Shown: one piece after another, positions 7,701 through 57,296 of the stretch
How the letters are laid out: each line of letters begins with the position of its first letter
Numbering within the stretch: position 1 is the first letter of the stretch
Assembly (NCBI GenBank): GCA_028826165.1
Contig: JAPDFW010000122.1
Coordinates: forward strand, 1-64,000
Length of the DNA: 64,000 bases
Reading direction: 5' to 3'
Source: Anaeramoeba ignava BMAN
Taxonomy: Eukaryota > Protista > Anaeramoebae
Notes under the pieces: model-generated
What the model saw: the letters and a program-made list of their open reading frames with translations, nothing else
Databases searched by the model: none
What the model was told of the DNA's origin: nothing
Position numbers and translations under genes: made by a program

Positions 7701-9816
7701 TTATGATTTATATTTATATTTATGTTATTTATATTTATATTTATGTTTTTTATTATTTATGTTTATGTTTATATTTATATTTTATGTTTATGTTTATGTT
7801 TATATTTTTATTTTTATGTTTATATTTTATGTTTATTTTTATTTATGTTTTTGTTTATGTTTATGTTATTTTATGTTTATATTTATGTTATGTTTATGTT
7901 TATATTTATATTTATGTTTATGTTTATGTTTTATGTTTATGTTTATTTATTTTATTTTATGTTTATGTTTATTTTTATGTTTATTTATGTTTATGTTTAT
8001 GTTTATATTTATATTTATGTTTATTTTTTATGTTTATGTTTATGTTTATGTTTATATTTATGTTTATGTTATGTTTATGTTTATGTTTATATTTAGTTTA
8101 TGTTTATGTTTATGTTTATGTTTATTTTATATTTATATTTATATTTTATGTTTATTTATATTTATGTTTATATTTTATATTTATGTTTATGTTTTATTAT
8201 GTTTATGTTTTATGTTTATGTTTATATATTTTATGTTTATGTTTATATTTTATGTTTATGTTTATGTTTTTATGTTTATGTTTATATTTATTTTTATGTT
8301 TATGTTTATATTTTGTTTATTTTATGTTTATATTTTATATGTTTATATTTTTTTATTTATGTTTATGTTTATATTTATATTTATATTTTATTTATGTTTA
8401 TGTTTATGTTTATATTTATATTTATATTTATGTTTATATTTATATTTATGTTTATATTTATATTTTTGTTTATGATTTATATTTATAATTTATGTTTATG
8501 ATTTATATTTATGTTTATATTTATGTTTATGTTTTATATTTTTATTTTATATATTTTATGATTTTATATTTATATTTTATGTTTATATTTTATTTTTATT
8601 TATATTTATATTTATGTTTATGTTTATGTTTTATGTTTATATTTATATTTTATTTTTATTTTTATTTTTATGTTTATATTTTATGTTTTATATTTATATT
8701 TATATTTATGTTTATGTTTTAATTTATATTTTATTTTTTTATTTATATTTATGTTTATATTTTTATATTTTATGTTTATGTTTATATTTATGTTTATGTT
8801 TATGTTTATTTATGTTTATATTTTTATATTTTATTTTTATGTTTATATTTATATTTATTTTTATATTTATGTAATTTATATTTATATTTTATGTATTTAT
8901 ATTTATATTTATATTTATATTTATATTTTATTTATGTTTATGTTTATGTTTATTTTTATTTATTTATGTTTATGTTTTGTTTATATTTATGTTTATTTTA
9001 TGTTTATGTTTATATTTATATTTATGATTTATGGTTTATGTTTATGTTTATGTTTATTTTTATGTTTATGTTTATGTTTATATTTTATATTTTATGTTTA
9101 TATTTATGTTTATGTTTATATTTATTTATGTTTATTTTTGTTTATATTTATGTTTTTATATTTATAATTTATATTTATATTTATTTTATTTTATGTTTAT
9201 ATTTTGTTTATGTTTATATTTTTATATTTTGATTTATGTTTTATTTTATTTTTTTTTATATGTATATTTATGTTTTATTTTATTTTATGTTTATATTTTT
9301 ATATTTATGTTTTATATTTATGTTTTACATATTTATATTTATATTTTATGTTTATTTATATTATTTTTTGTTTTATATGATTTATGTTTATTTTTTATTT
9401 ATATTTTATTTTTATTTATATTTATTTTTAAATATTTATGTTTATTTTTTAATTGTATTTTTCTGTTTATTGTTTTTATATTTATATTTTATTTATAATT
9501 TATATTTATATTTATATTTATATTTATATTTATATTTATATTTATATTTATATTTATATTTATATTTATATTTATATTTATATTTATATTTATATTTATA
9601 ATTATATTTATATTTATATTTATATTTATATTTATATTTATATTTCTAATTGTATTTCTAATTGTATTTCTATTTGTATTTATATTTATATTTATATTGT
9701 TTAAATTGTGTGTTGATTAAGATTTTTTATACAGGTGCTCCACATAATAAAGAAATAATAATTGCAGAAATTATTTGTAAAACTTGAAACCAACCAAATT
9801 TATTTCGAGTTTGCAT
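4717..9816 (-). CDS. Nodulin-like / Mch1-type MFS transporter (multi-exon, frameshifts in the 3' half, 3' end approximate)
   Basis: Exon 1 (9816..9733) [28 protein letters not shown] joins via the GT..AG intron 9732..6486 to [11 protein letters not shown]...[26 protein letters not shown] (MFS motif A-like). The C-terminal half, near 4870-4930, has [21 protein letters not shown]. Confidence 0.72.
6486..9732 (-). repeat. 3247-nt intron filled with a degenerate (TTTATA/TTTATG)n microsatellite
   Basis: GTATAA donor at 9732 and AAG acceptor at 6486 on the minus strand restore the frame. The interior is the hexamer array, with pure TTTATA at both ends and TTTATG-rich sequence in the middle. Confidence 0.88.
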
Positions 9817-22182: not shown

Positions 22183-25100
22183 TTATAAATCAATTATTGA
22201 ATTTGGATTTAATTGATAATAATCTTTTGCATCTTTCAATTCTTCAATGATTTTATGATTAATTTTGCTTTCTTCAAATTCATCATGATAAAAGAAATAG
22301 ATTAATTGTTGAATTGTTTCAAATGATTTTCCTGAATAATCATGAACTTGATTAGATGTATCTTGAACATTTAATTGAAACATTCCTTTAAATAACTCAC
22401 TTCTTAATATTAATATTAATTTATGAACTTTGACTTCTTTTTCTTCTTCACAAATTATTGAAAAATCTTTTGTTTTTTCATTTTGATATAAATTATGGAA
22501 ATCTTTCAATAAACTTTTTCTTCCCTTTTTTGTTTCAATCCATTTTGAATCAAATCCAATTTCTTTGAAAAATTCTTGAATTAATGATTCTTTTTCTTCA
22601 TTAGAAGTCAATACTTTTAAGCTATTTTTAGAAGGTTTGGTATTTTTTTGAGCATAATAATCATAATCGTCACTTAAATCATCATCATCACTAAAACTAT
22701 TAGAATCGTTATCATCATTACCACGAGCAACAAAAAGTTGATTGATTTCATCAAAATCAACAAATCCTGTGTAAAGTAAATTCAAAGCAATTTCAACTTC
22801 TTTTTTGGGTTTTTGATAACAATTATTGATAAATTTTTGGAGAATTGGTTCATCATTATCAAATCTTGTTAATAAAAATAATTTGTGAACATTAAATTTG
22901 AAAGAATCATTTGATGTAATTGTTAGATCTGAAAAATTATCATTTAGATTTTAATAATTTGTTCAAATCTTGGTTAAATGAATAAACTTTTGAAAATAAT
23001 TCAATAAACTGGGTTTTCACAGCTTTTGGTTTTAAATCATAAATATTTGCATCATTCAATAGCAAACTTTTGATTGCATTCTGATTTCTGTTTTGGATTG
23101 ATAATGAAAGAGGTGATCTTTTATATGAATTGCAAATATTAATATCAGCTCCTTTTTCGATTAAATAATCGATAATTTGAGAAGAATTAAGGGAACAAGC
23201 TTGATATAAAGCTGTTTGCTCATCTTCTGCTTGGGCATTAATATCAATTCCCTTTGAAACTAAATATTTAATAACTTCAACTGATGAATAACTCCAGCAG
23301 GCTGAATGTAAAACTGTTTCATTACGATTTGTTTTGACATGAACATCAGCTCCTTTTTCAATTAAATATTCAATAGTTTCAAGACTTTGGTCGCTTTGAC
23401 AAGCAAAATGCAAAGCTGTTTCATTATAAACTGTTTTGGCGTTAACATCAGCTCCTTTTTCAATCAAAAACTTGATAATTTCGTTTGAATTTGTATTTGA
23501 ATTTTGGCATGCAAAATGCAAGGCTGTTTTATCTTCTTCTGTTTTAGCATTAATATCAATTCCTTGTTCAAGTAAATACTCGATGATTGCGTGTGATGGC
23601 GAGTAATGACAAATAATATGCAAGAGTGTTTCATTATCATTTGTTTTTTGGTGAATATCAGCTCCCTTTTCAACAAGATATTTGATAACTTCATATGATG
23701 ATTCACCCCAACAAGCATAATGTAAAAGTGTTTGATCTTGGTTTGTTTTAACATTAATATCAGCTCCCTTTTCAATCATATATTTGATATCTCTAAATGG
23801 ACTATTTTGGCAAGCAAAATGCAAAGCTGTTTCATTTTCATTTGTTTTCGCGTTGATATCAACTCCACTTTCAATAAAAAATTTGATAAATTCAAAAGAT
23901 AAATAATTTTGGCAAACAGTATGCAATACTGTTGCATTATCATATGTTCTTGCATTAATATTGGCTCCCTTTTCAATAAGATATTTCATAATTTCAAGTG
24001 CTGAGTTATTTCTGCAAGCATAATGCAAAGGTGTTTCATTGTCGATTGTTATTGCGTTGACATCGAGTCCTTTTTCAATAAAATATTTGATAATTTCAAG
24101 TGATGAATTGGATTGACAAGCAAAATGCAAAAGTGTTTCATTTTGGTCTGTTTGAGTATTAATGTCAGCACCATTATCAATAAGATATTTAACGATTTCA
24201 AGTGGTGATTTATTCCAAAGAGCAAAGTTCAAAGCTGTTTCGTTGCTATTTGACTTTGCATGAACATCAACACCTTTTTCAACAAGATACTTGATGATTT
24301 CAAATGATGAATTATTCTCACAAACTAAATGCAGTACTGTTTGATTGTTATCTGTTTTTGCATGAACATCAGCTCCTTTATCAACCAAATACTTGATGAT
24401 TTCTAGTTTTGGACTGTATTGACAAGCATGATGCAACGCTGTTTCGTTGTAATCCGATTTGGTATTAATTTCAACTCCCATTTCAACCAAATATTTGATA
24501 ATCTCTAATGAACTCTGCTGGCAAGCATAATGCAAAACGGTTTCATTCCGATCTGTTTTTGTGTGAATATCAACCCCTTTGGAAATCAAATATTCAATAA
24601 CTTCAAGTGATGGGTTATTTCTGCAAGCAAAATGCAAAATTGTCTCATTTTGATTTGTTTTGGAGTTAATATTAATTCCCTTTTCAATCAAATAGTCGAT
24701 AATTTCAAACGCTAAATCATTGTGAATTGCAAAAAACAAAGCTGTTTCGTTTCTATTTGTTGTGGCGTTAATATCAATATTATTTTCAATTAAATATTTG
24801 ATAACCTCAATCGATGAAGTTGATCGACAAGCCAAATGTAAAGCTGTTTTATTTTGTTCTGTTCTCGCATTAATATCGATTTCCTTTTCAACAAAATATT
24901 TTATAACTTCAAGGGATGAATTGTGTTGACAAAGAGTATGCAAGACTGTTTCATTATATCTTGTCTTGGTATTAATATTTGCTCCATTCTCAACTAAATA
25001 CTGGATAATTTCAAGAGATGAGTTGTCTTGGCAAAGAATATGCAAAGGTGTTTCATTTTCAGTTGTTTTTGCATTAACATCTGCTCCTTTTTCAATTAGC

Positions 25101-27733
25101 ATTTCGATAACCGGGATAGAAGCGTTGTATTCACAAGCAAAATGCAAAGTTGTTTTGTTTTCATTTGTTTTGGCGTGAATATCCACTCCTTTTTCAATCA
25201 AATATTGAATAATCTCAGGGGATGTGCTGTTTTCGCAAGCAGTGTGCAATATTGTTTGGTTTTCATTTGTTTTTTCTTTTACATTCGCCCCCTTTTCAAT
25301 CAAATATTTGACAGTTTCAAAGGATGCGTTGTTTTGACAAGCAAAAAACAAAATACTGATATTTTCAACTGTTTTTGAATTCACATCAATTCCTTTCTCA
25401 ATTAAATATTTAATAACTTCAAATGAACCACTCCAACAAGCATAATGCAAAACTGTTTCATCCAATTTTGTTTTAGCGTGAATATCCGCTCCTTTTTCAA
25501 CTAAATACTGGATAATTTCAAAAGAGTCTGATTTGCATGCAAAATGTAATGGTGTTTGATTCCCAATTGTTTTTGAATTAATATCTACTCCTTTTTCAAC
25601 CAAATATTGTATAATTTCCAGAGAATTGTTAAAGCAAGCAGAATGCAAAACTGTTTCATTTTCGTTTCCTTTTTCGTTTATACGAGCTCCCTTTTCAACA
25701 AGATATTTGACAATTTCAAATGAAGCTTTGTGACAAGCCAAATGCAAAACTGTTTGATCATCTTTTGTTTTGGCGTTTATATCCACTCCTTTTTCAACAA
25801 AATACTGGATAGTTTCAATCTGCAAGGTTTTTTGGCAAATAAAATGCAAAACATTTTCATCCGATTTTGTTTTAGCATTAATATCCACTCCTTTTTCAAC
25901 CAAATATTGGATAACATCCAGAGAATTATTTTGGCAAGCAGAATGCAATACTGTTTCATTTTCATCTGTTTTGGCGTGAATATCAGCTCCTTTCGAAATC
26001 AAATACTGAATAACATCCAGAGAATTACCCCAGCAAGCTAAATGGAGTGGAGTTTCATTTTCACTTGATTTTACATTAATATCGGCTCCTTTTTCAATCA
26101 AGTATTGAATAACTTTGATTGAATTCTGCTGGCAAGCTAAATGTAAAACTGTTTTATTTTCGTTGCTTGTTTTTGTGTTAATATCAACTCCCTTTTCAAC
26201 AAAAAATTGGATAATTTCAAGTGAATTATCCCACGAAGCTAAATGCAGAACTGTTTCATCCCAATTTGTTTTTGCATATATATCAGCATCCTTGTCAATA
26301 AAGAACTGAATAACCTCAAGTGGAACGTTTCTTTGGGTAATGAAATGTAAAGCTGTTCTTTTCCTACTTGTTTTTGCATTGATGTCGATTCCAATCTCGA
26401 TCAAATACTTAATAACATCAATATCATTGTTTTTGCAGGCCAAATGCAGAATTGTTTCGTTTGTTTTTGTTTTGGTGTGAATATCAATTCCCTTCGAAAT
26501 CAAATATTTAATCACTTCAAGTGTATTTTTTTTGCATGCAAAATGCAATATTGTTTCATTGTCATTTGTCTTTGCATTAATATTGGCTCCCTTTGAAATC
26601 AAGTATTCAATAACATCGACTGTATTCTTTCGACATGCAAAATGTAACGCTGTTTCGCCTTCATTTGTTTCTAAATTGACACCAATTCCTTTTGAAATCA
26701 AAAACTGAATAACATCAAGTTTTTTTTTCTGGCACGCAAAATGCAAAACTGTTGTATTCATACTTGTCTTAAAATTAATATCAGCTCCCTTTGAAATCAA
26801 ATATTGAATAACTTCAAGTGAATTCATATGAGATGCAAAATGTAAAGGTGTTTCGTTTCCATTTGTTTTGGCATTAATATCAATTCCTTTTTCAACTAAA
26901 TACTTGACAATTTCAAGTGAATTCTTATGAGATGCAAAATGTAAAGGTGTTTCGTTTTCATTTGTTTTAGCGTGAATATCAGCTCCTTTCGAAATCAAGT
27001 ATCGAACAACTTCAATTGAATTTTTATTGCATGCAATATGAAGAGCTGTTTCATTTTCAAATGTTTTTTGATTAATATTGATTCCTTTTGAAATCAAATA
27101 TTCAATAACTTCAAGTGAATTTCTTTTGCAAGCAAAATGTAAAGCTGTTTTATTTTCTTCTGTCTTTTGATTAACATCAATTCCCTTTGAAATCAAATAT
27201 TCAATAACTTCAAGTGAATTCCTTTTGCAAGCAAAATGCAAAACTGTTTCTTTTTCAAATGTTTTAGCATTAATATTGATTCCTTTTGAAATTAAATATT
27301 CAATAACTTTAAGTGAATTCCTTTTGCAGGCAAAATGCAATACTGTTTCATTTTCGTATGTTTTAGCATTAATATCAGCTCCTTTTGAAATCAAATATTC
27401 AATAACTTTAATTGAATTCCTTTTGCAGGCAAAATGCAATACTGTTTCGTTTTCATATGTTTTAGCATTAATATCAGCTCCTTTTGAAATTAAATATTCA
27501 ATCTCTTCAATTGAATTCCTTTTGCAAGCCAAATGTAAAGGTGTTTCGTTATTTTTATTTTTTGCATTAATATTAATCCCCCTTTCAATTAATAATTTGA
27601 TCATTTCGAAAGAAACTTCTTTTTTAAATGCAAAATGTAAAATTGGTTTTATAATATTTTCTGAAATGTTTTGAATTTTTTTGATTGATTCAATATCATT
27701 TTTTTCAATAATTTGTTGAATATTAATATTCAT
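22183..27733 (-). CDS. Giant ankyrin-array + tandem BTB protein, paralog A (~45 ankyrin repeats; one +1 frameshift at ~22943)
   Basis: Continuous 33-35 aa repeats (xETxLHxAC....EIIKYLIEKGxDINAKT). Removing one A in TCTAAATGATAAT restores SNDNFSDLTI...VHKLFLL (BTB1) and joins ORF 22183..22785 (TKDFSIICEEEKEVKVHKLILILRSELF, BTB2). Start taken at MNINIQQ. Confidence 0.85.
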
Positions 27734-27828
27734 TTTCTTTTTTTTTAAAAATAGAAAAATAAAAATAAAAAAAATTTTTTTTTTCATTTTTTCGTTTTTT
27801 TTATTTTTTTTTCTTTTTAAATTTAAAA

Positions 27829-30800
27829 ATGAATGAAATTTATCAATCAATTAAAAAAAATGATATTGAATACGTTAATAAAATAAATTTTTCAAATACA
27901 AAATTAGAAAATAATGAAGAAAATAAAGATTTTTTACATTTTGCAATCAAAAAAAATTCGACATTTGAAATGATTAAATTATTAATTGAAAAAGGAATAA
28001 ATCCAAATTCAAATGATAAATTTCGAAACAATTCTCTTCATTTAGCTTTTTTAAACAATTCATCATTTGAAATTATCAAGTTATTAATTGATAAAGGAGT
28101 TGATGTTAATGCAAAAAATAAAGATAATGAAACACCTTTACATTTGGCTTGCAAAAAAATACAAAATTTATCCTTTGAAATTATCAATTATCTTATTGAA
28201 AAAGGAGCTGATATTCATGCCAAAACAGATAAAAATGAAACAGTATTGCATTTAGTGTGTGGCGTCAATCCAAAAGAAGTTGAAGAATATTTGATCGAAA
28301 ACGAAGAATCATCAGTTATTCAATTAGACAAAAAAATAGCTCAAGTTATAAAGTTATTGGTTGAAAAAGGAATTGATATTAATTCTAAAACAAAAGGAAG
28401 TAAAACAGCTTTGCAACTTATTTTCAAAAAAGAGAATCTATCGTTTGAAATTATTAAATTTATGATTGAAAATGGAGCTGATATTGAAAAAGAACAAACA
28501 AAAATGAAACATTTCTTCATCTTGTTTGCCAAAAAGATAATATTTCTCTTGAAATTATGGAATATTTAGTTGAAAAAGGAGTTGATATTAATGCTAAAAC
28601 AAAAGGAAGTAAAACAGCTTTGCAAATTATTTTCAAAAAAGAGAATTTATCGTTTGAAATTATTAAATTTATGATTGAAAATGGAGCTGATATTGAACAA
28701 AGAACAAACAAAAATGAAACATTTCTTCATCTTGTTTGCCAAAAAGATAATATTTCTCTTGAAATTATGGAATATTTAGTTGAAAAAGGAGTTGATATTA
28801 ATGCTAAAACAAATGATCGTGAAACAGCATTATATTTTGTTCTTGCCAAACAAAATTTATCTCCTGAAATTATTAAATTCTTTATTGAATATGGAGTTGA
28901 TATTAATGAGAATATTAAATACGATCAAACAGCTCTTCATTTCATTTGTAAAGAGTTTCATTCCACTGAAATTATTGAATTGTTGATTGAGAATGGAGCT
29001 GATATTAACAAAGTCGATTCTCGGTTTCAAACACCATTTTATATTGCGTCAAAATATAACTCTTCACTTGAAGTGATCAAATATCTTGTTGGAAAGGAAG
29101 CTGATTTGCACTCAAAAGGCAAATATAATGAAAAAATGCCAATCCATTTGGCTTGCAAAAACAATACGTTGGAAATTGTTAAATATTTAGTTGAGAATGG
29201 AGCTGATATTAATAAAAAAGCAATTAGAAATCAAACTCCTCTGTTTTTTGCTTGTCACAGAACATCTTTTGATGTCGCTAAGTTGATAAATAAAGACACA
29301 AATAATCTTGATAAAATCACGAAAAAAAACGGAGAAGTTATAAATGAAAAAACTGATAATGAATCTCTTGAAGTTATCAAGTACCTTATTGGAAAAGGAG
29401 CTGATATTAACGCAAAAACAACTATCAACGAAACACTTTTACATTTTGCGTGTATTCATTCTTCATTTGGAGTCATCAAGTATCTTGTTGAAAAGGGAAT
29501 TGATGTTAACTCTAAAACAGATCAAAATGAATCAGTTTTGCATTATGCTTGTTATCGCAATACATTTGAAGTTATTAAATATTTAATTTCCCAAGGAGCT
29601 GATATAAGCACAAAAACAAATCGAAATGAAACACCTTTGCATTTTGCATGCCATAAGAATTCACTTGAAATTGTCAAATATTTAGTTGAAAAAGGAATTG
29701 ATATTAATGCCAAAACAAATGATGAAAATGAATCTGCATTGCATATTGCTTGCAGAAAAAATTCTTTGGTAGTTATTCAATATTTGGTTGAACAGGGAAT
29801 GGATATTGATGCCAAAACAAAACCTAAAGATGAAACTGCATTGCTTATTGCGTGTAGAAAAAATTCACTCGAAGTTATCCAATATTTAGTTTCAAAAGGA
29901 GCTAATATTCATGCTAAAACAAAAACAAATGAAACAGTTTTGCATATTGTATCTTATGTGAATTCGTCAGAATCTTTGAGATTTTTGATTGAACAAGGAT
30001 TGGATATTGATGAAAAGGATTCAAAGGAAGAAACACCACTTTCTATTGCAATCCGCAACCAAAATCATTATTCAACAAAACTTTTATTAATGAATGATGC
30101 AAATTTTTTTGATTTAAAAGAAAATGAAATGCTTAATGAAAATTACGAGTTAATCACAAAAATTTATTCAATCAACGAAGATATGAATAATTTATTGCAA
30201 TCAAATCAACTTTCAGATTTAACAATTAAATCAAATGATTCTTTCCAATTCCAAGTTCACAAATTGATTTTATTAACAAGATTTGATAATAATGAATCAA
30301 TTCTCCAAAAATTTATCAATAATTGTTATCAAAAACCCAAAAAAGAAGTTGAAATTGCCTTGAATTTCCTTTACACAGGATTTGTTGATTTTGATGATTT
30401 TAATATCTCTTTAGCTCAAAAAATAGCCAAAATTAACAAGGAAAAACTTTTACTTCTTTCTTTTTTGGGTGAATTGCTTGAATCACGTGAATACAAAGAC
30501 AAAAAGAAAAAAGATATTATTTCAGAAATACAAAATAAAGAAAAATTAATTTAAAATTTTTCAAAGAAATTGGGATTGATTCAAATTGGATTGAATTAAA
30601 AAAGGGAAGAAGAAATTTAATAAAAGATTTATCAAAATTATATGAAGAAAATGAAACTAAAGATTTTACAATAATTTGTGAAAATGAAAAAGAAATTAAA
30701 GTTCATAAATTAATATTAATATTAAGAAGTGAATTATTTAAAGGAATGTTTCTAAATGTTCAAGATTCATCAAATCAAGTTCATGATTATTCAGAAAAAT

Positions 30801-31042
30801 CATTTGAAACAATTCAACAATTAATCTATTTCTTTTATCATGATGAATTTGAAGAAAGCAAAATTAATCATAAAATCATTGAAGAATTAAAAGATGCAAA
30901 AGATTATTATCAATTAAATGATAAATCACTTTTGGATTCTTTTTTATCAGATATATTATTAAAATCTTCAAAAAAGAAAAAAAAATGGAATGAAAGAATG
31001 AGATTTATGAACAAAAAAAATAGTGATTGTAAAGTTTTTTAA
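27829..31042 (+). CDS. Ankyrin-array + tandem BTB protein, paralog B (~20 repeats; -1 frameshifts at ~28488 and ~30545)
   Basis: ORFs 27829..28569, 28557..30554 and 30746..31042 join when single bases are restored. The first matches a missing C relative to the internal duplicate; the second is one A fewer than paralog D in GAAAAAATTAAT. Confidence 0.83.
28361..28812 (+). repeat. Recent ~210-nt (two-ankyrin) tandem duplication in paralog B
   Basis: 28501.. and 28711.. are identical for ~100 nt (aaaatgaaacatttcttcatcttgtttgccaaaaagataa...), and the KTKGSKTALQ..FKKENLSFEIIKFMIENGAD unit occurs twice. Confidence 0.9.
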
Positions 31043-31254
31043 TTTAAAAAACAAAATTAAAAAAAATTTAAAAAAAAGGAAAATTTTAAATTTTAATATA
31101 AATAAAAAAAATTTTAAAAAAGAAAAATTGGGAAAAGGATGTGAATTAATTGATCCTTTTTGATCCACCTTCCTTCCCTTTTCCCGTCTTTTCATTTTTT
31201 CTTTACAAATCAAAAATTCAATACAATTCAAAATCTCAAAAATAAAAAATTAAA

Positions 31255-31294
<40 letters not shown>

Positions 31295-31813
31295 AAAATA
31301 AAAATTAAACAAAAAAACAAAAAAACAAAAAAAATTAAACAAAAAAAAACACAAAAAAAACACAAAAAAATTAAAAGGTTTATTCGAATTAACTTTAATT
31401 AAATTTAATTGAGGTTTTTTTCTTCAAAACAAAAAAATTCTCTTTTAGATTTGTTTCTCTTTTCAAAATGATTATTTTTCATTTGATTATTTAATTCAAT
31501 TCATTTAGATTTAGAATTTATTTAAAACCATCAATTTTGAAACTTAAATCGATTCTAAAAGCGAGAAATGCTTAAAAGAACGATAAAATAAAGTTTTAAT
31601 TGAGAAATTTTAAATAAACTTTTAAATTTAAATAAATTGAAATTTAAATAATTCTTTAAATGGAATTTCCAAATTAATCATTTTAAAAAGTTAGAACGGA
31701 GTTAATTTGAATAAATTTTTTTTAAATTTTTTTTTTAATTAATTTTTATTTTTTAATTATTTTTAAGTTCTAAACTGTCCACTTTTTTTTTTTATTTTTA
31801 TTTTTAATTTTAT

Positions 31814-34800
31814 TTATTTTAAAATTAAATCAATTATTGAATTTGGATTTAATTGATAATAATCTTTTGCATCTTGTAATTCTTCAAAATTTCTTGAATT
31901 AAGTTCATTTTCTTCAATTTCATCATGATAAAGAAAATGAATTAATTGTTGAATTGTTTCAAATGATTTTCCTGAATAATCATGAACTTGATTTGATGAA
32001 TCTTGAACATTTAATTGAAACATCCCTTTAAATAATTCACTTCTTAATATTAATATTAATTTATGAACTTTAATTTCTTTTTCATTTTCACAAATTATTG
32101 TAAAATCTTTAGTTTCATTTTCTTCATATAATTTTGATAAATCTTTTATTAAATTTCTTCTTCCCTTTTTCAATTCAATCCAATTTGAATCAATCCCAAT
32201 TTCTTTGAAAAATTCTAAATTAATTTTTCTTTATTTTGTATTTCTGAAATAATATCTTTTTTCTTTTTAATTTCTTTTCTTTTTATGTAGATTCTCTTCA
32301 TCTTCTTTATTATTGTTTGTTTCTGAATTTTGTTCTTCTTTATGCTTTAAATTAATAAAATTTTGTTGGATTTCATCAAAATCAGCGAATCCCGTGTAAA
32401 GGAAATTCAAAGCAATTTCAACTTCTTTTTTGGGTTTTTGATAACAATTATTGATAAATTTTTGGAGAATTGATTCATTATTATCAAATCTTGTTAATAA
32501 AATCAATTTGTGAACTTGAAATTGGAAAGAATCATTTGATTTAATTGTTAAATCTGAAAGTTGATTTGATTGCAATAAATTATTCATATCTTCGTTGACT
32601 GAATAAATTTTTGTGATTAATTCTCTTATTTCATTAAGCATTTCATTTTCTTCTAAATCGAAAAAATTAGCTTCATTCATTAATAATATAATAGTTATCA
32701 CTTTTTTATCATTTTCAATTGATAATTGAAGAGGTGTTTCATTGTTATTGTTTTTGGCATTAATATCTGCTCCTTTGGAAATTAGGTATTTTGTACCTTC
32801 AATTTCATCATAAAATGATTCACAAATTAAATGCAAAGCTGTGTCGCCATCAGTTGTTTTAGCATTGATATCAATTCCGTTTTCCACCAGAAATTTGATA
32901 ACCTCAAATTGCGAAGTAAAGCTGCTGCAAGCATAATGCAAAACTGTTTTGTCCTCATTTGTCTTAGCATTAATATCAGCTCCTTTTTCGATTAAATATT
33001 TGATAATCTCAACCGAAAGATATTTCGAGGCAAAATGCAAAGGTGTCTCATCATCATATTTTGTTTTAGCGTTGACATCCATCCCTTTTTCAATAACATA
33101 TTGGATAGATTCAAGTGATCCAAAAAATGATTGGCAAGCAAGATGCAAAATTGTTTCATCATTGTATGTTTTAGCATTTATATCAGCTCCTTTTTCAATA
33201 AGATACTTGATGGCTTCAAATGAATAGTATTTGCAAACCAAATGCAAAGCTGTTTGGTTTTCATCTGTTTGGGCGTTCATATCAACTCCTTTTTCAATAA
33301 GATAATTGATAATTTCAATACTTGTCGAAGTTCTTTCGCAAGCATAATAAAGAACTGTTTTATTGTGATTTGTTTTAGCATTTATATCAACACCCTTTTC
33401 GACAAGATACTTGATAACTTCAAATGAATTGTTTTGGCACGCCAAGTGTAATGCAGTTTCGTTATAATTTGTTTTGGTATGAATATCAGCTCCATTTTCA
33501 GCGAGATATTTGATGATTTCAATCGAATTAGTTGAGGATGCATAATGAAAGGGTGTTTTATTGAAATCTGATTTAGCATTAATATCAACTCCTTTTTCGA
33601 TTAAATATCTAATGATATCAAGCGACGAATTATATTTGCAGGCATAATGCAATACTGTTTCTTTTCGATTTGTTTTGGCATCAAGATCAAATCCCTTTTC
33701 AATAAGATAATTGATAACTTCAAACGAAACGCTTTGGAAAAAAGCTGAGTGTAAAATTGTTTCTTTCTCGTATTTTGTTCTGGAATCCATTTTGGCTCCG
33801 TTTTCAATAAGATATCGAACAACTTCAACTTTGGTATTATATTTGCATGCATAAATCAAAGGTGTTTCATTTTGGTTTGTTTCGGAATTGATATCAATCC
33901 CTTTTTCGATTAAATACTTCATAAGTTTAAGTGAATAGTTTTCGCATGCGCGATGCAACATAGTTTCATTGGATTTTGTTTTAATATAGATATCAGCTTC
34001 TTGGGAAATCAAGTATTTGAAAACCTTGTATGAATTTGTTTGGGATGCGAAATGTAGGGCTGTTTCGTTGTTGCTTGTCTTTGCGTTGATATTAACCCCC
34101 TTTTTCACAAGGTGTTTGATAACTTGAAGTGTGTTTTTTTTCGATGCATATTGCAAAATTGTCTGGTTCTTGTTTGTTTTAGAATTTATGTAAATGCCTT
34201 TCGAAATCAAATATTTAACAACTTCAACAGAATTTTTTAGACAAGCTAAATGTAATGCTGTTTCATTCGAATCTGTTTTGGCTTTTACATCAAGTCCTTT
34301 TTCAATTAGATATTTGATAACTTCAAGTGAATTTTTTTCACATGCAAAAAGTAATGATGTTTCATTACTATCTATTTTGTCATTTATATCAAGTCCTTTT
34401 GAAATCAAATATTTAATTACTTCAAGCGAATTTTTTTTGCAAGCAAAATGCAATGATGTTTGACCCCAGTCTGTCTTGGCATGTATATTAGCTCCTTTCG
34501 AAATCAAATATTCAATAACTTCAATTGAATTTTTTTCACATGCATAATGAAATGGTACTTGAGTCCATTCTGTTTTAGCATTTACATCAAGTCCTTTTTC
34601 AATTAGATATTTGATAACTTCAAGCGAATTTTTTTCACACGCGAAATGTAAAGCTGTTTCATTATATTTAGTTTCAGCATTTACATCAAGTCCTTTTTCA
34701 ATCAAATATTTGATGACTTCAAGTGTGTTTTTTTGATATGCATAGTGCAATAGTGTATCATCATAATTTGCTTTTGAGTTAATATCAACTCCTTTTGAAA

Positions 34801-35476
34801 TCAAATAGTCAATCACTTCGACTGAGTTCTCCAAACATGCATAATGCAGTGTTGTTTCGTTGAATTCTGTTTTGGCATTTATATCAAAACCTTTTGAAAT
34901 CAAATATTCAATCACATCAACCGAATTACTCAAACATGCATAATGGAGTATTGTATCACCTTTGATTGTTTTTACATTGATATCAATTCCCTTGGAAATC
35001 AAGTACTTAATAATTTCAAGTGATCTTTTTTGGCATGCATAATGCAACCCTGTTTTGTTTGTTGTTGTTTTTGCATGTATGTTAATTCCTTTTGAAATCA
35101 AATACTCTATCATTTTGATTAAATTTTCAGTTTTATAATAAATGATTGAATAATGAAAAAGTGTTTTTTCTTTTTTGTCTTTGGAATTAATTGATATTCC
35201 TTTTGAGAGCAATAATTCAATCACTTCAATTTCTGAATTATTCATAATTGCATGATGTAACGAATTTCTTTCTTTTTCATCAATTCTTTTTAGTTTTGCT
35301 CCTTTTGAAATTAATAATTCAATCATTTCTTTGCTTGCTTTTTTTTCTAATGCAAAATTTAAAATTGTTTTGTGTGTTTCTTTCTTAAATTTTTTTTCTT
35401 CAATATTCTCAATTTTTTTCAATAATTCAATTTGATTTTTTTCAATAATTTCAAGTAAATTATAATTTTCATTCAT
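31814..35476 (-). CDS. Ankyrin-array + tandem BTB protein, paralog C (~27 repeats; frameshift(s) at ~32225-32285)
   Basis: ORF 32267..35476 (ankyrins + BTB1) and ORF 31814..32173 (BTB2) are separated by an A-rich stretch matching paralog B (KKKKDIISEIQNKE). Confidence 0.85.
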
Positions 35477-35515
35477 TTTTATAAAAATAAAAATGAAAAA
35501 AAATGAAAAAAAAAT

Positions 35516-38500
35516 TTATTTTAAAAATAAATCAATTATTGAATTTTGATTTAATTGATAATAATCTTTTGCATCTTTCAATTCTTCATTAATTTCATTA
35601 TTAAATTCAAATTCATCATGATAAAGAAAATAGATAAATTGTTGAATTGTTTCAAATGATTTTCCTGAATAATCATGAACTTGATTTGATGTATCTTGAA
35701 CATTTAATTGAAACATCCCTTTAAATAATTCACTTCTTAATATTAATATTAATTTATGAACTTTGATTTCTTTTTCATTTTCACAAATTATTGTAAAATC
35801 TTTTGTTTCATTTTCTTCATATAATTTTGATAAATCTTTTATTAAATTTCTTCTTCCCTTTTTCAATTCAATCCATTTTGAATCAATTCCAATTTCTTTG
35901 AAAAATTTTAAATTAATTTTTTCTTTATTTTGTATTTCTTTTAATTCAATGTACATTGCATTATTCACTTTTGCTCTTATATCATCCATTTCTCTCCATG
36001 AAATAGTTTTTGAATCAAATAATTTTTCAGACATTTCAATATAATTATTTAACTGGATAACTTTGTGAAGTTTTTCATAATAAACACCAAAATCAGCAAA
36101 TCCTGTGTAAAGGAAATTCAAAGCAATTTCAACTTCTTTTTTGGGTTTTTGATAACAATTATTGATAAATTTTTGGAGGATTGATTCATTATTATCAAAT
36201 CTTTTTAATAAAATCAATTTGTGAACTGAGAACTGGAAAGAATCATTTGATTTAATTGTTAAATCTGAAAATTGATTTAATTGCAATAAATTATTCATAT
36301 CTTCGTTGATTGAATTAATTTTGAGAAACAATTCAATAATTTGTGATGGGATTTGGGATAATCTAGTTTTAAAGATATCGAATCCATAAATGAACAATAT
36401 TGCTATTACTGATGTAATTCCATTTGGGTATTGGTTATTTAAAGAGAGACTGAAAGGCGAAATATTACTTTTATCAAATACATTAACTTCAGCTCCATTT
36501 TTAGCTAATAATTCAACAATTTCATCAGAATTTAATTTTTGTTTGCAAGCATAATGTAGTGGTGTTTCTTCATTAATTTTTGTTTTGGCATTAATATCAG
36601 CTCCATTTGAAATTAAATATCTGATCACTTCAAGCGAATCTTGTTGGTTGTGTTTACAAGCAAGATGCAAAGGTGTTTCTTGGCTGATATTTCTTGAATT
36701 GACATCTATTCCTTTGGAAACCAAATATTCAACAATTTCAATTGAATTTGCTTTTTTGTCACAAAAAATATTCAAAGCTGTTTGCCTTGCAAGTTTTGTT
36801 TCGGCATTAACATCAATTCCGTTCTCAACAAGATATCGGATAACATCGAGTTGAACGTGTTGTTGATGCATGCAAACATAATGCAAAGCAGTTTCATTAT
36901 AGAATGTTTTTGAATTAATATCAATCCCTTTTTCGACAAAATACTTGATAATTTCAAGAGAATTGGAGTTTTTACAAACAGTATGCAAAGCGTCTTGATC
37001 TTCTATTAATGATTTTATTTGTGTGTTTGATTCGTTTTCAACCAACAATTTGATAATTTCAAGTGAATTAGTACGGCAAGCATAATGCAAAGGTATTTCG
37101 TTATTATCATTTTTTGCATTAATATTAGCTCCTTTTTCAATTAAATATTTGATTGTTCCAAATGCTTTTTGTTTGCAAACCAAATGAAGAGGTGTTTGGC
37201 CACTATGAGTTTTGCAATTCACATTAGCCCCTTTTGAGATTAAATATTCAATTATATCAAATGTTTCCTTTTTGGAACAAACACAATGAAGAGGAGTTTC
37301 CTGGTGATATTTATTTCTAGCATCAACATCAGCCCCGTTTTCGACAAGAAATTTAATCATTTCCAATGATTTGTCACGGCAAGCGGTATGCAATATTGTT
37401 TCGTTTTGGTATCCAATTCCGTTGATATTTGCTCCCTTTTCGATTAGATATTTGATAAGATCTTTTGAATTATTTTTGTAAGCATAAAAAAAGGGAACTT
37501 CTTTTTGGTTGCCGTGCTTGTTTCTTATATGAATATCTGCTCCACTTTCAATTAAAAACTTGATAATTTCAAAGGAATTATTTTGGAAAGCAACTGATAA
37601 AGGTGTTTCATGTCTTGTTAATATTCGATTAATGTTAGCTCCTTTCTCAACTAGATATTTAATAACTTCAAATGGTGCATTATGTTTGCACGCATAATAC
37701 AAAGGAGTTCTATTTCCATTAATTGCATTTATATATAAGCCTCTTGAAAGCAGGTATTTAATAATTTCAAGCGAACATTTTTGTTCACAAGCAAAATGCA
37801 AAAGTGTTTTTTTCGGAAGTTCAATTTGAAATAAATTTATTCCTTTTTCATCAAAATATTTAATCATTTCAATAGAGTTTTTTCTTAATGCAATATGGAA
37901 TACTGTCTCTCTATAAAACGAGTTTTTCTGTAATTGGATTCCTTTTTCAACCAGATATCTAATAATTTCAAATGAATTATTTTCGCAAGCAAAATTTAAA
38001 GCTGTTTCATAATGAGATGTTTTAGCATTAATATCTATTCCTTTTTCAATTAGATATTTGACAACTTCCAATTTATTTTTATGACATGCAAAATGTAAAG
38101 ATGTTTTTTCTAGATTTGTTTTATCGTTAATATTAGCTCCTTTTTGTATCAAATATTCTATAATCCACAATGGATTATTTTCACATGCAAAATGCAGAAC
38201 TGTTTTATTTTCATTCGTTTTTGCATTAATATTAGCTCCATTTTCAACAAGATATGTGATAACTTCAAGAGAATTATTCTGAGATGCAAAATGCAGAGCT
38301 GTTTCGTTTTTGTTTGTTTTGAAATTAATATCAGCTCCTTTTTCAACAACATACTTGACAATTCCAATTAAATTATTTTGAGATGCAAAATGTAAAATTG
38401 TTTGGTTTTGATCTACTTTAGAATTAATTCCAACTCCTTTTTCAATAAGATATTTGATAATTTCCAAAGAATTTTTTTCACATGCCAAATACAAAATTTT

Positions 38501-39904
38501 TTCATTTATTGTTGATTTAAGATCAATATCTATTTGTTTTTCAATAAGACATTTTATAACTTCGAAAGAATTAATTTTATGTTTAAATGCTAAATGCAAA
38601 GCTGTTTCATTATTATTTGTTTTAGAATTGATATCTATTCCCTTTTCAATAAGATATTTAACAATTTCCAAAGAATTATTTTCATGTTTAAATGCTAAAT
38701 GCAAAGCTGTTTCATTATTATTTGTTTTAGAATTGATATCTATTCCCTTTTCAATAAGATATCTAACGATTTCCAAAGAATTATTTTCACATGCATAATG
38801 TAAAACTGTTTCATTTTTATTTGTTTTAAAATTAATATCAATTCCTTTTTCAACAAGATATTTAACAATTTCCAAAGAATTACTTAAACATGCATAATGT
38901 AAAACTGTTTCATTTTTTTTTGTTTTAGAATTAATACCAATTCCCTTTTCAACAAGATATTTAACAATTTCCAGTGAATTATTTAAACATGCATAATGTA
39001 AAGCTGTTTCATTATTTTTTGTTTTAGAATTGATATCAATTCCCTTTTCAACAAGATATTTGACAATTTCCAAAGAATTATTTAAACATGCATAATGTAA
39101 AACTGTTTCATTTTTATTTGTTTTAGAATTGATATCAATTCCCTTTTCAACAAGATATCTGACAATTTTAAGTGAATTATTTTCACAAGCAAAATGTAAA
39201 ACTGTTTCATTATTGTTTGTTTTAGAATTAATATCGACTCCTTTTTCAATAAGATATTCAATAATTTCCAAAGAATTATTTAAACATGCAAAATGTAAAA
39301 CTGTTTCATTTTTTTTAGATTTAGCATTAATATCAATTCCTTTTTCAACAAGATATTTAACAATTTCAAGTGAATTGTATTGACAAGCATAATGAAGTGA
39401 AGTTTTATTTTGTTTGCATTTTAGCTTAATTTCAGCTTCTTTAGAAATTAGTAATTCAATAACATCTTGAGAACTTGAAGTTGAGGCATAATGAAGAGGA
39501 GTTTTTCCATGAAATCCAGTTAAATTTGGATTCGCACCTGCATTTAATAATTTATTCACAATTTCTTTTGTATTTTTGAATTCACAAATCAAATGAAGAG
39601 GAGATTTAAGTTGAGAATTTAAAGAATTTAAATCAGCTCCTTTTGAAATTAATAACGAAACAATTTCTTCTCTTTTTTTTCCTTTTAATTCTGTTATTGC
39701 ATAATGAATTGGTTTATTTTTTAATTTATCAATTTTATTAATATTAATTTGTTTTTGAATAAGAAGATTAATAATTTCAATTTCAAAATTATTTATTATA
39801 GCAAAATGAAGTGAATTTTGTTGAAGATTGTTTGTAAATAAGTTTATATTTTGTTCTTTTTGAATTAAATTTTGAATTATTTGATTTGAAAAATTATTTT
39901 CCAT
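35516..39904 (-). CDS. Ankyrin-array + tandem BTB protein, paralog D (intact, 1462 aa, ~34 repeats)
   Basis: Uninterrupted ORF: ankyrin array, then FSDLTIKSNDSFQFSVHKLILLKRF (BTB1) and TKDFTIICENEKEIKVHKLILILRSELFKGMF (BTB2). It serves as the template for reconstructing A-C. Confidence 0.92.
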   Translation of the reverse strand: MENNFSNQIIQNLIQKEQNINLFTNNLQQNSLHFAIINNFEIEIINLLIQKQININKIDKLKNKPIHYAITELKGKKREEIVSLLISKGADLNSLNSQLKSPLHLICEFKNTKEIVNKLLNAGANPNLTGFHGKTPLHYASTSSSQDVIELLISKEAEIKLKCKQNKTSLHYACQYNSLEIVKYLVEKGIDINAKSKKNETVLHFACLNNSLEIIEYLIEKGVDINSKTNNNETVLHFACENNSLKIVRYLVEKGIDINSKTNKNETVLHYACLNNSLEIVKYLVEKGIDINSKTKNNETALHYACLNNSLEIVKYLVEKGIGINSKTKKNETVLHYACLSNSLEIVKYLVEKGIDINFKTNKNETVLHYACENNSLEIVRYLIEKGIDINSKTNNNETALHLAFKHENNSLEIVKYLIEKGIDINSKTNNNETALHLAFKHKINSFEVIKCLIEKQIDIDLKSTINEKILYLACEKNSLEIIKYLIEKGVGINSKVDQNQTILHFASQNNLIGIVKYVVEKGADINFKTNKNETALHFASQNNSLEVITYLVENGANINAKTNENKTVLHFACENNPLWIIEYLIQKGANINDKTNLEKTSLHFACHKNKLEVVKYLIEKGIDINAKTSHYETALNFACENNSFEIIRYLVEKGIQLQKNSFYRETVFHIALRKNSIEMIKYFDEKGINLFQIELPKKTLLHFACEQKCSLEIIKYLLSRGLYINAINGNRTPLYYACKHNAPFEVIKYLVEKGANINRILTRHETPLSVAFQNNSFEIIKFLIESGADIHIRNKHGNQKEVPFFYAYKNNSKDLIKYLIEKGANINGIGYQNETILHTACRDKSLEMIKFLVENGADVDARNKYHQETPLHCVCSKKETFDIIEYLISKGANVNCKTHSGQTPLHLVCKQKAFGTIKYLIEKGANINAKNDNNEIPLHYACRTNSLEIIKLLVENESNTQIKSLIEDQDALHTVCKNSNSLEIIKYFVEKGIDINSKTFYNETALHYVCMHQQHVQLDVIRYLVENGIDVNAETKLARQTALNIFCDKKANSIEIVEYLVSKGIDVNSRNISQETPLHLACKHNQQDSLEVIRYLISNGADINAKTKINEETPLHYACKQKLNSDEIVELLAKNGAEVNVFDKSNISPFSLSLNNQYPNGITSVIAILFIYGFDIFKTRLSQIPSQIIELFLKINSINEDMNNLLQLNQFSDLTIKSNDSFQFSVHKLILLKRFDNNESILQKFINNCYQKPKKEVEIALNFLYTGFADFGVYYEKLHKVIQLNNYIEMSEKLFDSKTISWREMDDIRAKVNNAMYIELKEIQNKEKINLKFFKEIGIDSKWIELKKGRRNLIKDLSKLYEENETKDFTIICENEKEIKVHKLILILRSELFKGMFQLNVQDTSNQVHDYSGKSFETIQQFIYFLYHDEFEFNNEINEELKDAKDYYQLNQNSIIDLFLK

Positions 39905-51134: not shown

Positions 51135-54100
51135 ATGGACAAATTGAAAGAATTAATTGCACCTCATATAGAAAGTTACAATTATGCAATATCAAAACTA
51201 AATGAAGCAATATTAGATCTAAGACCAGGAGAAATTCAAACAGATCCGAAATCACCATCATTTCTATTTTGGATTCGCAACATTTCAATACAAAAACCAC
51301 AACGGCAAGACGGTTCAATCCAAGAAAAAAAAGTATTACTTTATCCATCAGAATGCCGAAGACGCGGAATAAGTTACAGCGGAACATTAACCGCGGAAAT
51401 TGTACTGCAAATCACTGGGGATTTAGGGTTTTATCGCACAGTAACATGCGAATTGGGAAAAATGCCAGTTATGGTTCTTTCAAAACTTTGTAATTTATAT
51501 GGATTAACGGAAGAGCAACTTGTGGAGAAAAAAGAAGAACCGTTTGAAATGGGAGGCTATTTTATATCCAACGGATTGGAGAAAGTTTTCCGAATGATCA
51601 TCCAATCAAGAAAGCATTATATATTTACACTCAAAAGACCCAAATTTACAACAAAGGGTCCTTATTACACACAATTTGCGACTTTCATTCGTTGCTCAAG
51701 ATCCGACGAGTCTTCCCAACAGGTCTATCTGCACTATCTTTCAAACGGGGTTCTGATGATTCGCATTATTATACAGAAGCAAGAGTTCTTGATTCCTGCA
51801 ATTCTTATACTGAAATGTTTTGTTGAGACAAGTGATAAAGAAATATATGACAGAATAACAGAGTTTTTCCCAAACAACAGCTTTATTGCTGAACGTGTGG
51901 AGGTTTTACTCCGCGACTTCCAGAATTACCATCTCAGAAACAAGTCGGAATGCTTGCAATATATCGGGTCACGATTCAGACCCCTTCTGTTTTCACCTAT
52001 GAGTTATACAAATACAAAATGCGGCGAGGAATTTATTCGTCGGTTTATTTTCGTTCATTTGAACAACTTCACTCAAAGAGATAAAAACATTAATTTATCA
52101 ACAAACATTGTTATTGACAACACAAAGACAAACATCTACGCAGCAGAAAGCCAAATGCAAGACCAGAACGACAGTCCAGATGAAGACGAAGCTATTCTCC
52201 AAGAAGGAGAGGAAATTTCGATAAATATAAATTCGGATTCCAATCGCGCAAAATTCGATCTGATGATTACAATGATCCACAAATTATACTCACTTGTTTT
52301 GGGGGAAATTGGCCAAGATAATTCAGATTCCCCAAGTTTCCAAGAGGTTCTTCTTCCTGGACATTTATATCTTACCTTTTTCAAACAGAAATTACAGGAA
52401 TGGATTTTCCAGCAAGTGAATGTGATGAAAAAAATGGCTGGAATCCAAACCTCCTCTTTAAAATACAAACGGAGGAAACAAAAAAAGGAACTTAGTGAGG
52501 AAGAAAAGCGAAGAGAAAGCCAAATTCGCAAACTAAATCCTGATTATTTGGGAAAATCAACATTTTATGACGCAAATTTCTTTCTCAAATGTCTTAAAAA
52601 AAACTCGTTTGATATCGGAAAGAAATTCGATTTCCTCATTGCAACAGGAAATGCAGATTTGATTGATAACGCAGGTTTGCCCCAACAAGCAGGTCTTTCT
52701 ATCATTGCAGAAAAAATTAATTTTTTGAGATATGTTTCTCATTTTCGAAGTATTCATCGTGGGAGCTTTTTTTCAACAATGAAAACAACAAAGATCAGAA
52801 GATTATTGCCTGAGTATTGGGGATTTATCTGCGTTGATCCTGATACAAATGTTCTTTTAGCAGATTCCAAACAGCAAATCAAAATTAAGCATTTGCAAAA
52901 CAAGGTGAACAATGACAATTTCCAAATTGCAACAATAAATCGCAAATCTTTTTTGGAATCTGCCTCGAAAATTAAAAACTTTTTTGTTCATCGTGTTGAT
53001 AGATTGTTTCATATAACAACAATAACTGGGCATTCAATCAAAATTACAGGATATCATCCTCTTTTAGTTTTATCAAATCAAAATTCAAATTCAAATTCAA
53101 ATTTCATTTATATTTATGGAGATAAATTGAAAGTTGGGAATTTTGTTTGGATTAGGCATATTTACCAAAATTATGAGAAACAAAAAGAAGAGCAAAACAA
53201 AGAGCAAATGATATTATCAGACCAAATTTATAAAGATCGTCTTTCTCATTTACAAAATGAATCACAAATAGATTTTCTTTTAAATCAATTTTGTGCTCAT
53301 GATTTGTTACCTTTTACAAATTCTAATCAAAAAATACTTGATATGGCAAGATTTTCTGCAATTTTTTATACAATTGGCTTTTTGAAATGGAATAAAACTC
53401 TCAATTTAATTCAAGCAAAAATAACCGTAGATGACATAAATGATAAACAAGAACTTATTCAAGAGTTGCAATCAAATCCGCTCATCTCCAATTTACAGAT
53501 TAAGAAAAAAGATGGATTTATTTGCAAATTTCAAGGAATTTTACCATATTTTCTATATTCTCTCGGAATACCCTTAAGAGATGAAACTCCAAATAAAATA
53601 TTTCCAAATTGGCTTTTTAAATGCAAAAAATTAATTCAAAAGGAATTTTTAGCATCTTATTTAGGAACATTGAATATCAATTCCAAAAATATTTTGACAG
53701 ATTTTCAAAAAGGAAATGAAAAATATTTAAAAATTAATACTCCAAAATTATTTCCAAAAAAGAATAACAGCATTTTCCAAAATCAAATGAGAAAATTATT
53801 GCAAAATTTAAACCTTGAATTAACAAACCATTATTCAAAAAGCAATAAATTAGAGTATGAAATCAAACAATCTCTATCAAATATGGATATTTTATTCAAT
53901 CAAATTGGTGTTTATTATAATAATTCTGAAACAAAACAATTCTGTTTATTGGGAGAATTTATTCGTTATATTAATCACAATTTTATCAAGAATAGCAAAA
54001 AAACAAAAGCAGAATGGGAAGACAGAAGCATTATTAAATTGGCAAAACAAGCATTTTCTTTGAAAAAATTCAGAGAAACATTCAAACAAAAAGATCAACT

Positions 54101-57100: not shown

Positions 57101-57296
57101 TTTTATTTGTCGTAAATGTGGAAGTGTTTTATCTCCTCTTTTTGTTAGAGGTGATAGTGTTGAAGAAAAATCTATTAAATGCTTAACTTGTGATTCTAAA
57201 CAATATATTGAAAAAGTTCAAATTCCTTATGTTTTCCGTTTCTTAACTTCTGAACTTGCTGCAATGAATATTAAATTGACTCTTGAACTTAAATAA
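51135..57296 (+). CDS. RPA2: RNA polymerase I second-largest subunit (RPA2/Rpa135) precursor with two inteins and one intron (56738..56842)
   Basis: Pol I-type motifs PHIESYN, YPSECR, AEKINFLRYVSHFRSIHRG, LLPEYWGFI/CPVHTPDGAPCGLLNHL, SDFNQSPRNMYQCQM, GDKF/SSRHGQKG, NPHAFPSRMTIGM, YYQRLKHMVGDKFQVRSTG and PYVFRFLTSELAAMNI. The intron AG|gtattt...aatag|T restores LYSGVNG. The precursor is 2018 aa, or 1224 aa after removing both inteins. Confidence 0.96.
52830..54218 (+). mobile_element. Intein 1 in RPA2 (463 aa) with degenerate LAGLIDADG homing-endonuclease domain
   Basis: In-frame insert between WGFI and CPVHTPDG. Block A CVDPDTNVLLAD; block B ITTITGHSIKITGYHPLL (TxxH); block F IVMDIETSNGNHTFITNG; block G VSHN|C. 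Endonuclease-like remnants MARFSAIFYTIG, IQKEFLASYLG and FNQIGVYYN. Confidence 0.95.
55452..56444 (+). mobile_element. Intein 2 in RPA2 (331 aa) with degenerate endonuclease remnant and GN C-terminus
   Basis: In-frame insert between IGDKF and SSRHGQKG. Block A CLTEDHEVLTQSGWKFI; block B LDLVCTWEHKLFV; block F GKVYCPEVSSGIFFVRRNG; end WTGN|S. Remnants MNTWILFFGVYI, KLPKWCFELSENQSRLLL and ADHIQRLCLHSG. Confidence 0.95.

Follow-up and report, generated by a model that had tools for sequence, protein, structure and literature searches.

Proteins in which ankyrin repeats precede two tandem BTB domains have been described in fission yeast (Schizosaccharomyces pombe Btb3p) and in human (ABTB1/BPOZ); according to the description in PMC1257465 the repeats number about two, there is a long helical tail, and genes of this kind are few in each genome, and Btb3p binds the yeast Cullin-3 (Cul3) homologue, for which both of its BTB domains are needed. 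RhoBTB likewise has its BTB domains side by side, as a pair that was proposed to form an intramolecular dimer, and the first of the pair contains a large insertion (PMC1257465). Among gene families, F-box and MATH-BTB proteins of nematodes and plants form lineage-specific clusters with a constrained cullin-binding part and a faster-evolving substrate part, and a role against foreign proteins has been proposed for them on evidence that is called indirect (PMC1866355, PMC8665587). Here we describe a cluster of four adjacent ankyrin-array genes with two C-terminal BTB domains (genes A to D), located at 22183..39904 of a 64,000-nucleotide stretch (hereafter the window) of Anaeramoeba ignava BMAN contig JAPDFW010000122.1 (assembly GCA_028826165.1); the four paralogs were proposed from the sequence alone, and their presence is borne out. 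On the basis of sequence comparison and structure models, we consider that they probably encode substrate receptors of Cul3 ubiquitin ligases, within a locally duplicating Anaeramoeba family.

Like Btb3p and ABTB1, the window genes have their ankyrins N-terminal to the two BTB domains (BTB1 and BTB2); unlike them, they carry 21–45 repeats, stop immediately behind BTB2 and are part of a family whose members number from dozens to hundreds. The likeness considered here is one of architecture; the rows of our tree include no ABTB1 or Btb3p sequence, and the PANTHER ABTB families contain no A. ignava members. RhoBTB differs in having a GTPase instead of ankyrins, yet Ras-BTB and G-alpha-BTB members exist in the family of the window cassette. 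[quoted passage not shown] The cluster is built from known parts, those of ABTB1/Btb3-type adaptors, on a known plan, that of an expansion like those of the nematode F-box and MATH-BTB families.

The Pfam BTB domain is found twice in the tail of gene D, and across the four genes the match of BTB2 is strong and that of BTB1 weak. A structure model of the last 314 residues of D (predicted local distance difference test, pLDDT, 91; predicted template modelling score, pTM, 0.89) superposes on a tethered BTB dimer, Miz1-BCL6, across 209 residues (Z 13.8, root mean square deviation 4.2) and on the SPOP BTB domain, taken from its Cul3 complex, over 110 residues (Z 13.1, deviation 2.6), so that BTB1 and BTB2 are predicted to form a BTB dimer within one chain. 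The best solved matches of BTB2 by sequence are the Cul3 adaptors KBTBD4, SPOP, KLHL22, KLHL26 and KBTBD2. In the loop between α3 and β4, at the place of the phi-x-E motif, BTB2 carries V-x-D, with V or I in 91% and D or E in 96% (D in 90%, E in 6%) of 179 relatives, and the surface conserved over the same relatives consists of the Cul3-facing loop and helix 5. In KLHL3, loss of phi-x-E abolishes Cul3 binding (PMC3616122). In the mechanism that we propose, BTB2 would dock to Cul3 with helix 5 and the loop that carries V-x-D; the array would capture targets on its concave side, which presents dozens of differing surface patches, and captured targets would be ubiquitinated and degraded. The BTB folds of viruses are weak matches to the cassette. 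Near 30683, the Cul3-facing loop of gene B is one codon shorter than that of A, C and D; the short form is that of the majority in the wider family (83% gap).

The size and distribution of the family were estimated from protein searches. All 13 near-length matches of the C-terminal module belong to Anaeramoeba (11 A. ignava, 2 A. flamelloides), as do 81 of the 82 shorter matches (74 and 7, respectively), the remaining one being encoded by the window, and all 20 further representatives (19 and 1). The BTB cassette matches 1029 clusters (50% identity) at E ≤ 0.001, 338 at 1e-10 and 32 at 1e-30; the weak tail of the 1029 will include ordinary BTBs of other organisms. Among 76 proteins scanned of 150 listed, the module ahead of the cassette is an ankyrin array in 52, RCC1 in 8, WD40 in 3, Sel1 in 2, and Kelch, another propeller, SKICH, Ras or G-alpha in one each; four have BTB only and two are ordinary BTB-BACK or MATH-BTB proteins. 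The putative substrate-binding module is thus separate, represented by ankyrin arrays here and by other modules on the same cassette elsewhere. Both BTBs occur together with ankyrins in 44 of 79 close relatives (one of them, of 181 residues, misfiled), which carry 2–22 repeats with a median of 9; the arrays of A, C and D are the longest seen, and that of B, with about 21 repeats, falls within the range of the relatives. Complete transcriptome-derived models exist for two family members (P0005 and P0035). Several individual members have unusual architectures: the fusion partner of the cassette in P0200, P0100, P0079, P0039, P0007 and P0207 is a Rab/Ras GTPase, G-alpha, an array of SKICH/HECW_N or leucine-rich repeats, and P0001 and P0003 contain the ankyrin-BTB-BTB unit twice or have a BTB-BACK-TLD part joined to them, either as real fusions or as annotation joins.

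In a phylogenetic tree, the four window genes form one clade (support 95) inside a clade of 57 rows (support 100) that contains none of the nine A. flamelloides rows, and the genes of one contig mostly cluster together. The tree places the 57-row clade after the split of A. ignava and A. flamelloides and points to a lineage-specific, clustered expansion by local duplication. A pattern scan for relatives in viral or metagenome contigs found none; short metagenome fragments in ENA (P0214-P0216) cluster at 90% with the A. ignava member P0051 and are possible environmental relatives. The genome study of Anaeramoeba lists for A. ignava 102 SPOP-family genes, 135 KBTBD4-family genes and two ankyrin families of 151 and 149 genes, as well as 8 cullin-family genes, compared with 44–45 in A. 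flamelloides strains and 0–16 in the other protists listed (PMC11550330 Suppl. Data 4C). BTB, ankyrin, cullin and ubiquitin receive no mention in the main text of PMC11550330, the A. flamelloides cullin number included. The cluster is part of a much larger BTB-adaptor expansion, of which we found no earlier description in a search of the literature outside subscription papers; some PMC11550330 supplements may discuss the family.

A comparison of the two parts of the genes suggests that they evolve in different modes. In the BTB cores of A to D, 5–8% of the codons for the same residue differ (saturation, about 47%), whereas the nearest repeats of different genes show 20–33% synonymous mismatch; the cores are about fourfold closer than the arrays at synonymous sites, which suggests that gene conversion or cassette exchange homogenises the cores and that the arrays diverge freely. 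We envisage that the cassette would be kept uniform by such exchange while the arrays gain, lose and diverge repeats. The low third-position GC content of the cores (12–15%) could contribute to their uniformity. The insert of BTB1, which lies between conserved blocks, is unrelated among the genes, and the longest ungapped match between arrays is at most 151 bp. Repeat order is unshared in five of the six pairs of genes; in the pair A–C it exceeds all 100 shuffles, probably because the near-identical runs sit there. One pair of repeats, A8 and B11, is 94% alike over 109 bp and may reflect exchange between the genes, yet both are near the family consensus.

A 3-box or BACK domain after the BTB domain is usual, although not universal, in BTB-type Cul3 adaptors. 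Several observations weigh against our interpretation, and this concerns the first of them: no BACK match is found in the tail of D at E up to 1, and in the model the chain stops one short helix past helix 5, without the 3-box, an element that in SPOP contributes much affinity (PMC3616122). In addition, the motif of BTB2 carries D where known Cul3 adaptors carry E, and the BTBs of the transcription factors BCL6 and Miz1 equal that of SPOP in fold score. The cullin count of A. ignava is a family-level one in which Cul3 is not told apart. About 35 of the 79 close relatives are fragments or lack ankyrins. The tree was built by a quick method from 94 rows, only nine of them from A. flamelloides; with a mean identity of 37% between orthologues of the two species (PMC11550330), the missing of close A. 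flamelloides genes by itself says little. The uniformity of the cores could in part be a polishing artefact, three of the four genes are broken in the window as derived from GCA_028826165.1, and a search for exact matches of the six frames of A to D in the protein collection found none.

The absence of the 3-box, the D for E in the motif and the equal fold scores of BTBs that do not bind Cul3 would also suit an alternative in which the tandem BTB serves self-assembly or scaffolding rather than binding to a cullin, with arrays that act as scaffolds for structure or signalling, like those of ankyrin-R and ankyrin-B; among solved proteins, human ankyrins indeed match the array best, and the same positions vary in them. 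We regard this alternative as improbable, given that the conserved surface is the one that would face Cul3, that in the model the dimer interface is already occupied within the chain, and that the cassette is paired with typical substrate-binding modules. A tandem BTB without a 3-box also offers a test case for the rules of Cul3 docking.

For the analysis of the arrays, 100 of 118 segmented repeats were kept, with caps, poor-scoring repeats and those with long insertions dropped. As originally observed, variation is concentrated in the hairpin and after the LHxA motif: entropy is highest at positions 3 (3.68 bits), 13 (3.09), 14 (3.00) and 2 (2.96), followed by 15, 7 and 10, with the same ranking in 266 repeats of close paralogues, and 98 of the 100 repeats have a distinct five-residue face word. 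The framework, which had been called near-invariant, is conserved only, with a mean pairwise identity between repeats of 51%; an identity of at least 85% to the local consensus is reached in just two short runs, repeats 2–7 of A and 4–11 of D in the segmented numbering. The description of the variable positions as often aromatic was likewise overstated: aromatic residues make up 8, 18, 9 and 9% at positions 2, 3, 13 and 14, compared with 9–12% in three neighbouring proteins, although they make up 0–1% at back-surface positions; at position 10 the figure is 58%.

In DARPins (designed ankyrin repeat proteins), the randomised positions are 2, 3, 5, 13, 14 and 33. The proposed resemblance of the window genes to them holds for positions 2, 3, 13 and 14, which are variable, and fails for 5 and 33, which are conserved (1.7 and 1.2 bits; ratio of nonsynonymous to synonymous substitution rates, dN/dS, 0.33). 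The DARPin and ANK-N5C libraries share with the window genes a consensus-like framework of 33 residues and the variable positions 2, 3, 10, 13 and 14; the window genes differ from them also in a longer loop between helices 1 and 2, present in 40 of the 100 repeats. The resemblance carries little weight, because in designed libraries such positions were chosen for their natural variability (2, 3, 5, 10 and 13 for the highest entropy in 28 natural repeats; 2, 3, 5, 10, 13 and 33 in a related design; PMC4308713) and because human ankyrin-1 and ankyrin-2 vary at the same positions, as judged by eye from alignments. The pattern of face variability is generic for natural ankyrins. As a natural occurrence, consensus-like arrays on a ligase handle would have the layout that engineers build for targeted degradation.

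Selection on the repeats was assessed by codon models, implemented in our own code on a tree of the repeats, and by 14 neutral simulations run without gene conversion, a process that lies outside all of the models. Rather than varying uniformly under purifying selection, an outcome that would have spoken against the original prediction, the repeats have a dN/dS of 1.15 on the face (positions 2, 3, 10, 13 and 14), 0.30 on the back surface and 0.29 elsewhere (likelihood-ratio test statistic, LRT, 142), so that exposure alone does not suffice as an explanation. The binding face evolves about four times faster than the framework and near the neutral rate. With one shared synonymous rate, the pooled dN/dS of sites 2, 3, 13 and 14 is 1.26–1.42 compared with 0.29 for the framework, and that of position 3 is 1.8–2.1 (LRT 21–26). 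The predicted excess over 1 at hairpin and helix-1 sites is found at position 3 in the single-hit models (1.8–2.3; LRT 15.2 and 6.4 with the general time-reversible model, GTR), and is lost in those that fit best: GTR with double substitutions, which improves the fit by about 56 log units, gives 1.37 (LRT 3.9) or 1.11 (LRT 0.5) for position 3 and 0.74–1.11 for positions 2, 13 and 14. Positive selection, chiefly at position 3, is possible, and the excess over 1 is not robust.

In its strong form, the original prediction would make the genes an intracellular repertoire for immunity or symbiont control that is engaged in an arms race and whose binding face experiences diversifying selection. The value of position 3 in single-hit models exceeds that of all 14 neutral simulations (observed 1.96, simulated maximum 1.52; for the four-site pool, 1.23 and 1.21), 18% of the residues there are aromatic, and the family undergoes lineage-specific birth and death; moreover, Anaeramoebae have bacterial symbionts and traces of contact with large DNA viruses (PMC11550330, PMC10710043), with which they have inteins in common (PMC10710043), and the ankyrin repeats of fungal NLRs are under selection on the same face (PMC4986451). 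An effector-rich Legionellales symbiont has been described in A. pumila in a preprint whose available text leaves BTB unmentioned (10.64898/2026.04.11.717937). Apart from the loss of the excess in double-substitution models, the proposal is opposed by a four-site pool of 0.59–0.72 under class-specific synonymous rates, by values of about 1.2, not significant, for position 3 within A or D alone, and by nine close repeat pairs in which the proportion of nonsynonymous differences (pN) at the four sites is 0.27 and that of synonymous differences (pS) 0.21 in the framework and 0.33 at the same sites. Most repeats are old (65% DNA identity), and fast divergence among the repeats of one protein is general (PMC5120217). 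An immune repertoire driven by such selection is, in our judgement, unlikely. What stands of the prediction is a repertoire, specific to the lineage, of likely receptors for Cul3 substrates; architecture, fold, conservation of the motif and the tree support it, with binding to Cul3 itself predicted from sequence and models.

A face dN/dS near 1 is also what released constraint would produce, and the family could have arisen mostly as a side effect of duplication in an AT-rich genome prone to repeats: the fold would be kept, specific targets would be lacking for most repeats and many genes, and the face would drift. The many fragments among the relatives and the further ankyrin and BTB genes of these genomes, which run to hundreds, fit such an origin, which we nevertheless hold to be rather doubtful: framework dN/dS is 0.2–0.3 over 100 repeats, with the back surface at 0.3, BTB2 past the frame breaks remains conserved (pN 0.006–0.012 compared with pS 0.06–0.15 among B, C and D), and P0005 and P0035 have complete models derived from transcriptomes.

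Given a Cul3-adaptor mechanism, foreign proteins of viruses, symbionts or prey may be one main class of targets, a guess to which we give somewhat less than even weight and which draws on two analogies, one with nematode F-box and MATH-BTB families and the other with the ankyrins of fungal NLRs. The Podospora NLRs also vary in the hairpin and inner helix and have local runs of near-identical repeats (PMC4986451); such runs, 85% alike over at least 100 residues by an approximated form of the criterion for highly conserved (HiC) repeats, occur locally in A and D and are absent from B and C. Fungal NLRs differ in possessing NACHT or NB-ARC, neither of which, nor a death effector, was found in the Pfam scan of the window genes. 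In a bolder and unlikely version, the homogenised tandem BTB would be a constant module on hundreds of variable binders, a germline "antibody-like" degradation system in which giant arrays scan with many specificities and direct proteins of viruses or symbionts to the proteasome; if true, it would represent a protist intracellular immune repertoire built on Cul3 and not on NLRs. Little is known about the ways in which free-living protists recognise foreign proteins and dispose of them, and the idea that expanded ubiquitin-ligase adaptors do so comes from indirect evidence in worms and plants. The family makes this idea testable in a distant branch of eukaryotes, in an organism that grows in culture, harbours bacterial symbionts and has been in contact with large DNA viruses.

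The layout of the cluster is given in Table 1. Repeat counts, obtained with a profile built from the repeats themselves, agree with the original ones for A and C and are slightly different for B (6+16 in two overlapping pieces, about 21 rather than 20) and D (33 rather than 34). The original description did not mention breaks in the frame: D is readable as a single open frame without any intron, A, B and C are interrupted by frameshifts, and the strands differ.

Table 1. Coordinates of the ankyrin-BTB-BTB genes and of features within them, in window positions
Feature	Position	Strand	Description
Gene A	22183..27787	minus	Array of 45 ankyrin repeats followed by BTB-BTB; a single frameshift lies near 22945, where array and cassette adjoin
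Gene B	27829..30964	plus	Array of about 21 ankyrin repeats followed by BTB-BTB; two frameshifts, one near 28490 and one near 30540
Gene C	31814..35476	minus	27 ankyrin repeats, then BTB-BTB; frame lost at about 32230-32290 in A-runs, then same frame again
Gene D	35516..39904	minus	Unbroken frame of 1462 residues; array of about 33 ankyrin repeats followed by BTB-BTB
Tandem BTB cassette of D	35519..36334	minus	BTB1 with variable helical insert, BTB2 C-terminal, no 3-box/BACK; predicted single-chain BTB dimer
V-x-D motif, BTB2 of D	35693..35701	minus	Aligned with the phi-x-E Cul3-binding motif of KBTBD4
Recently duplicated repeat run in A	27065..27559 (approximate ends)	minus	About repeats 2-6; 87% to local consensus
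Recently duplicated repeat run in D	38621..39418 (approximate ends)	minus	8 repeats (4-11 of the segmented set); 86% to local consensus
Two-repeat tandem duplication (210 bp) inside B	28357..29008	plus	

The frame breaks are probably assembly errors, since every one of them lies in or beside A-runs, sequence past them is conserved, and contigs from short reads point the same way for B, the one gene for which reads were checked (four runs, all as contigs, in which summed depth gives no copy number). In run X1, a contig over 28576-28708 carries the first-copy allele of the 210-bp duplication, with three differing letters and no gap, where 10 mismatches are expected between this stretch and the first copy of the window, six of them past the break; this supports an assembly error at 28490, on the evidence of one run. 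At 30540-30542, contigs with one extra base are present in three of the four runs, with D or other paralogues as their possible origin. The frameshifts in all three genes, and the one break that B and C have in common, could instead mean that A, B and C are true pseudogenes and D the sole active gene, which the same location of the breaks, contigs and conserved sequence make quite improbable. The published A. ignava assembly was produced from Nanopore reads polished with Nanopolish and Pilon (PMC11550330). A 69-residue piece of C is a separate annotated gene, and a search for longer, fused forms of the genes found none, which is weak evidence. Programmed frameshifting at the break shared by B and C was set aside, as no canonical slippery heptamer was seen by eye and frame-restoring contigs are present.

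The genes are tightly packed, with 39 bases (35477-35515) between the stop of D and the start of C, and with the starts of A and B head to head at a distance of about 100 bases or less (27788-27828 between them). TCATT motifs occur 20–30 bases 5' of the ATG; we take them to resemble the Trichomonas initiator.

The window as a whole is about 80% A+T and eukaryotic, and ordinary genes flank the cluster, encoding RhoGEF, PH and FYVE proteins, Med27 and RNA polymerase I's second-largest subunit. The last of these (51135-57296) contains an intein at residues 573–1028 (Pfam) and, by eye, a second one near residues 1440–1770, inteins being a known trait of Anaeramoeba (PMC10710043). A BTB gene of another type, with long NQ repeats and a coiled-coil-like tail, is located at 60028-62502. 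A tandem array of about 522 copies of a hexamer, with extreme strand skew, occupies 6547-9698, and other long arrays of hexamers and of 12–18 bp units lie between the genes of the window.

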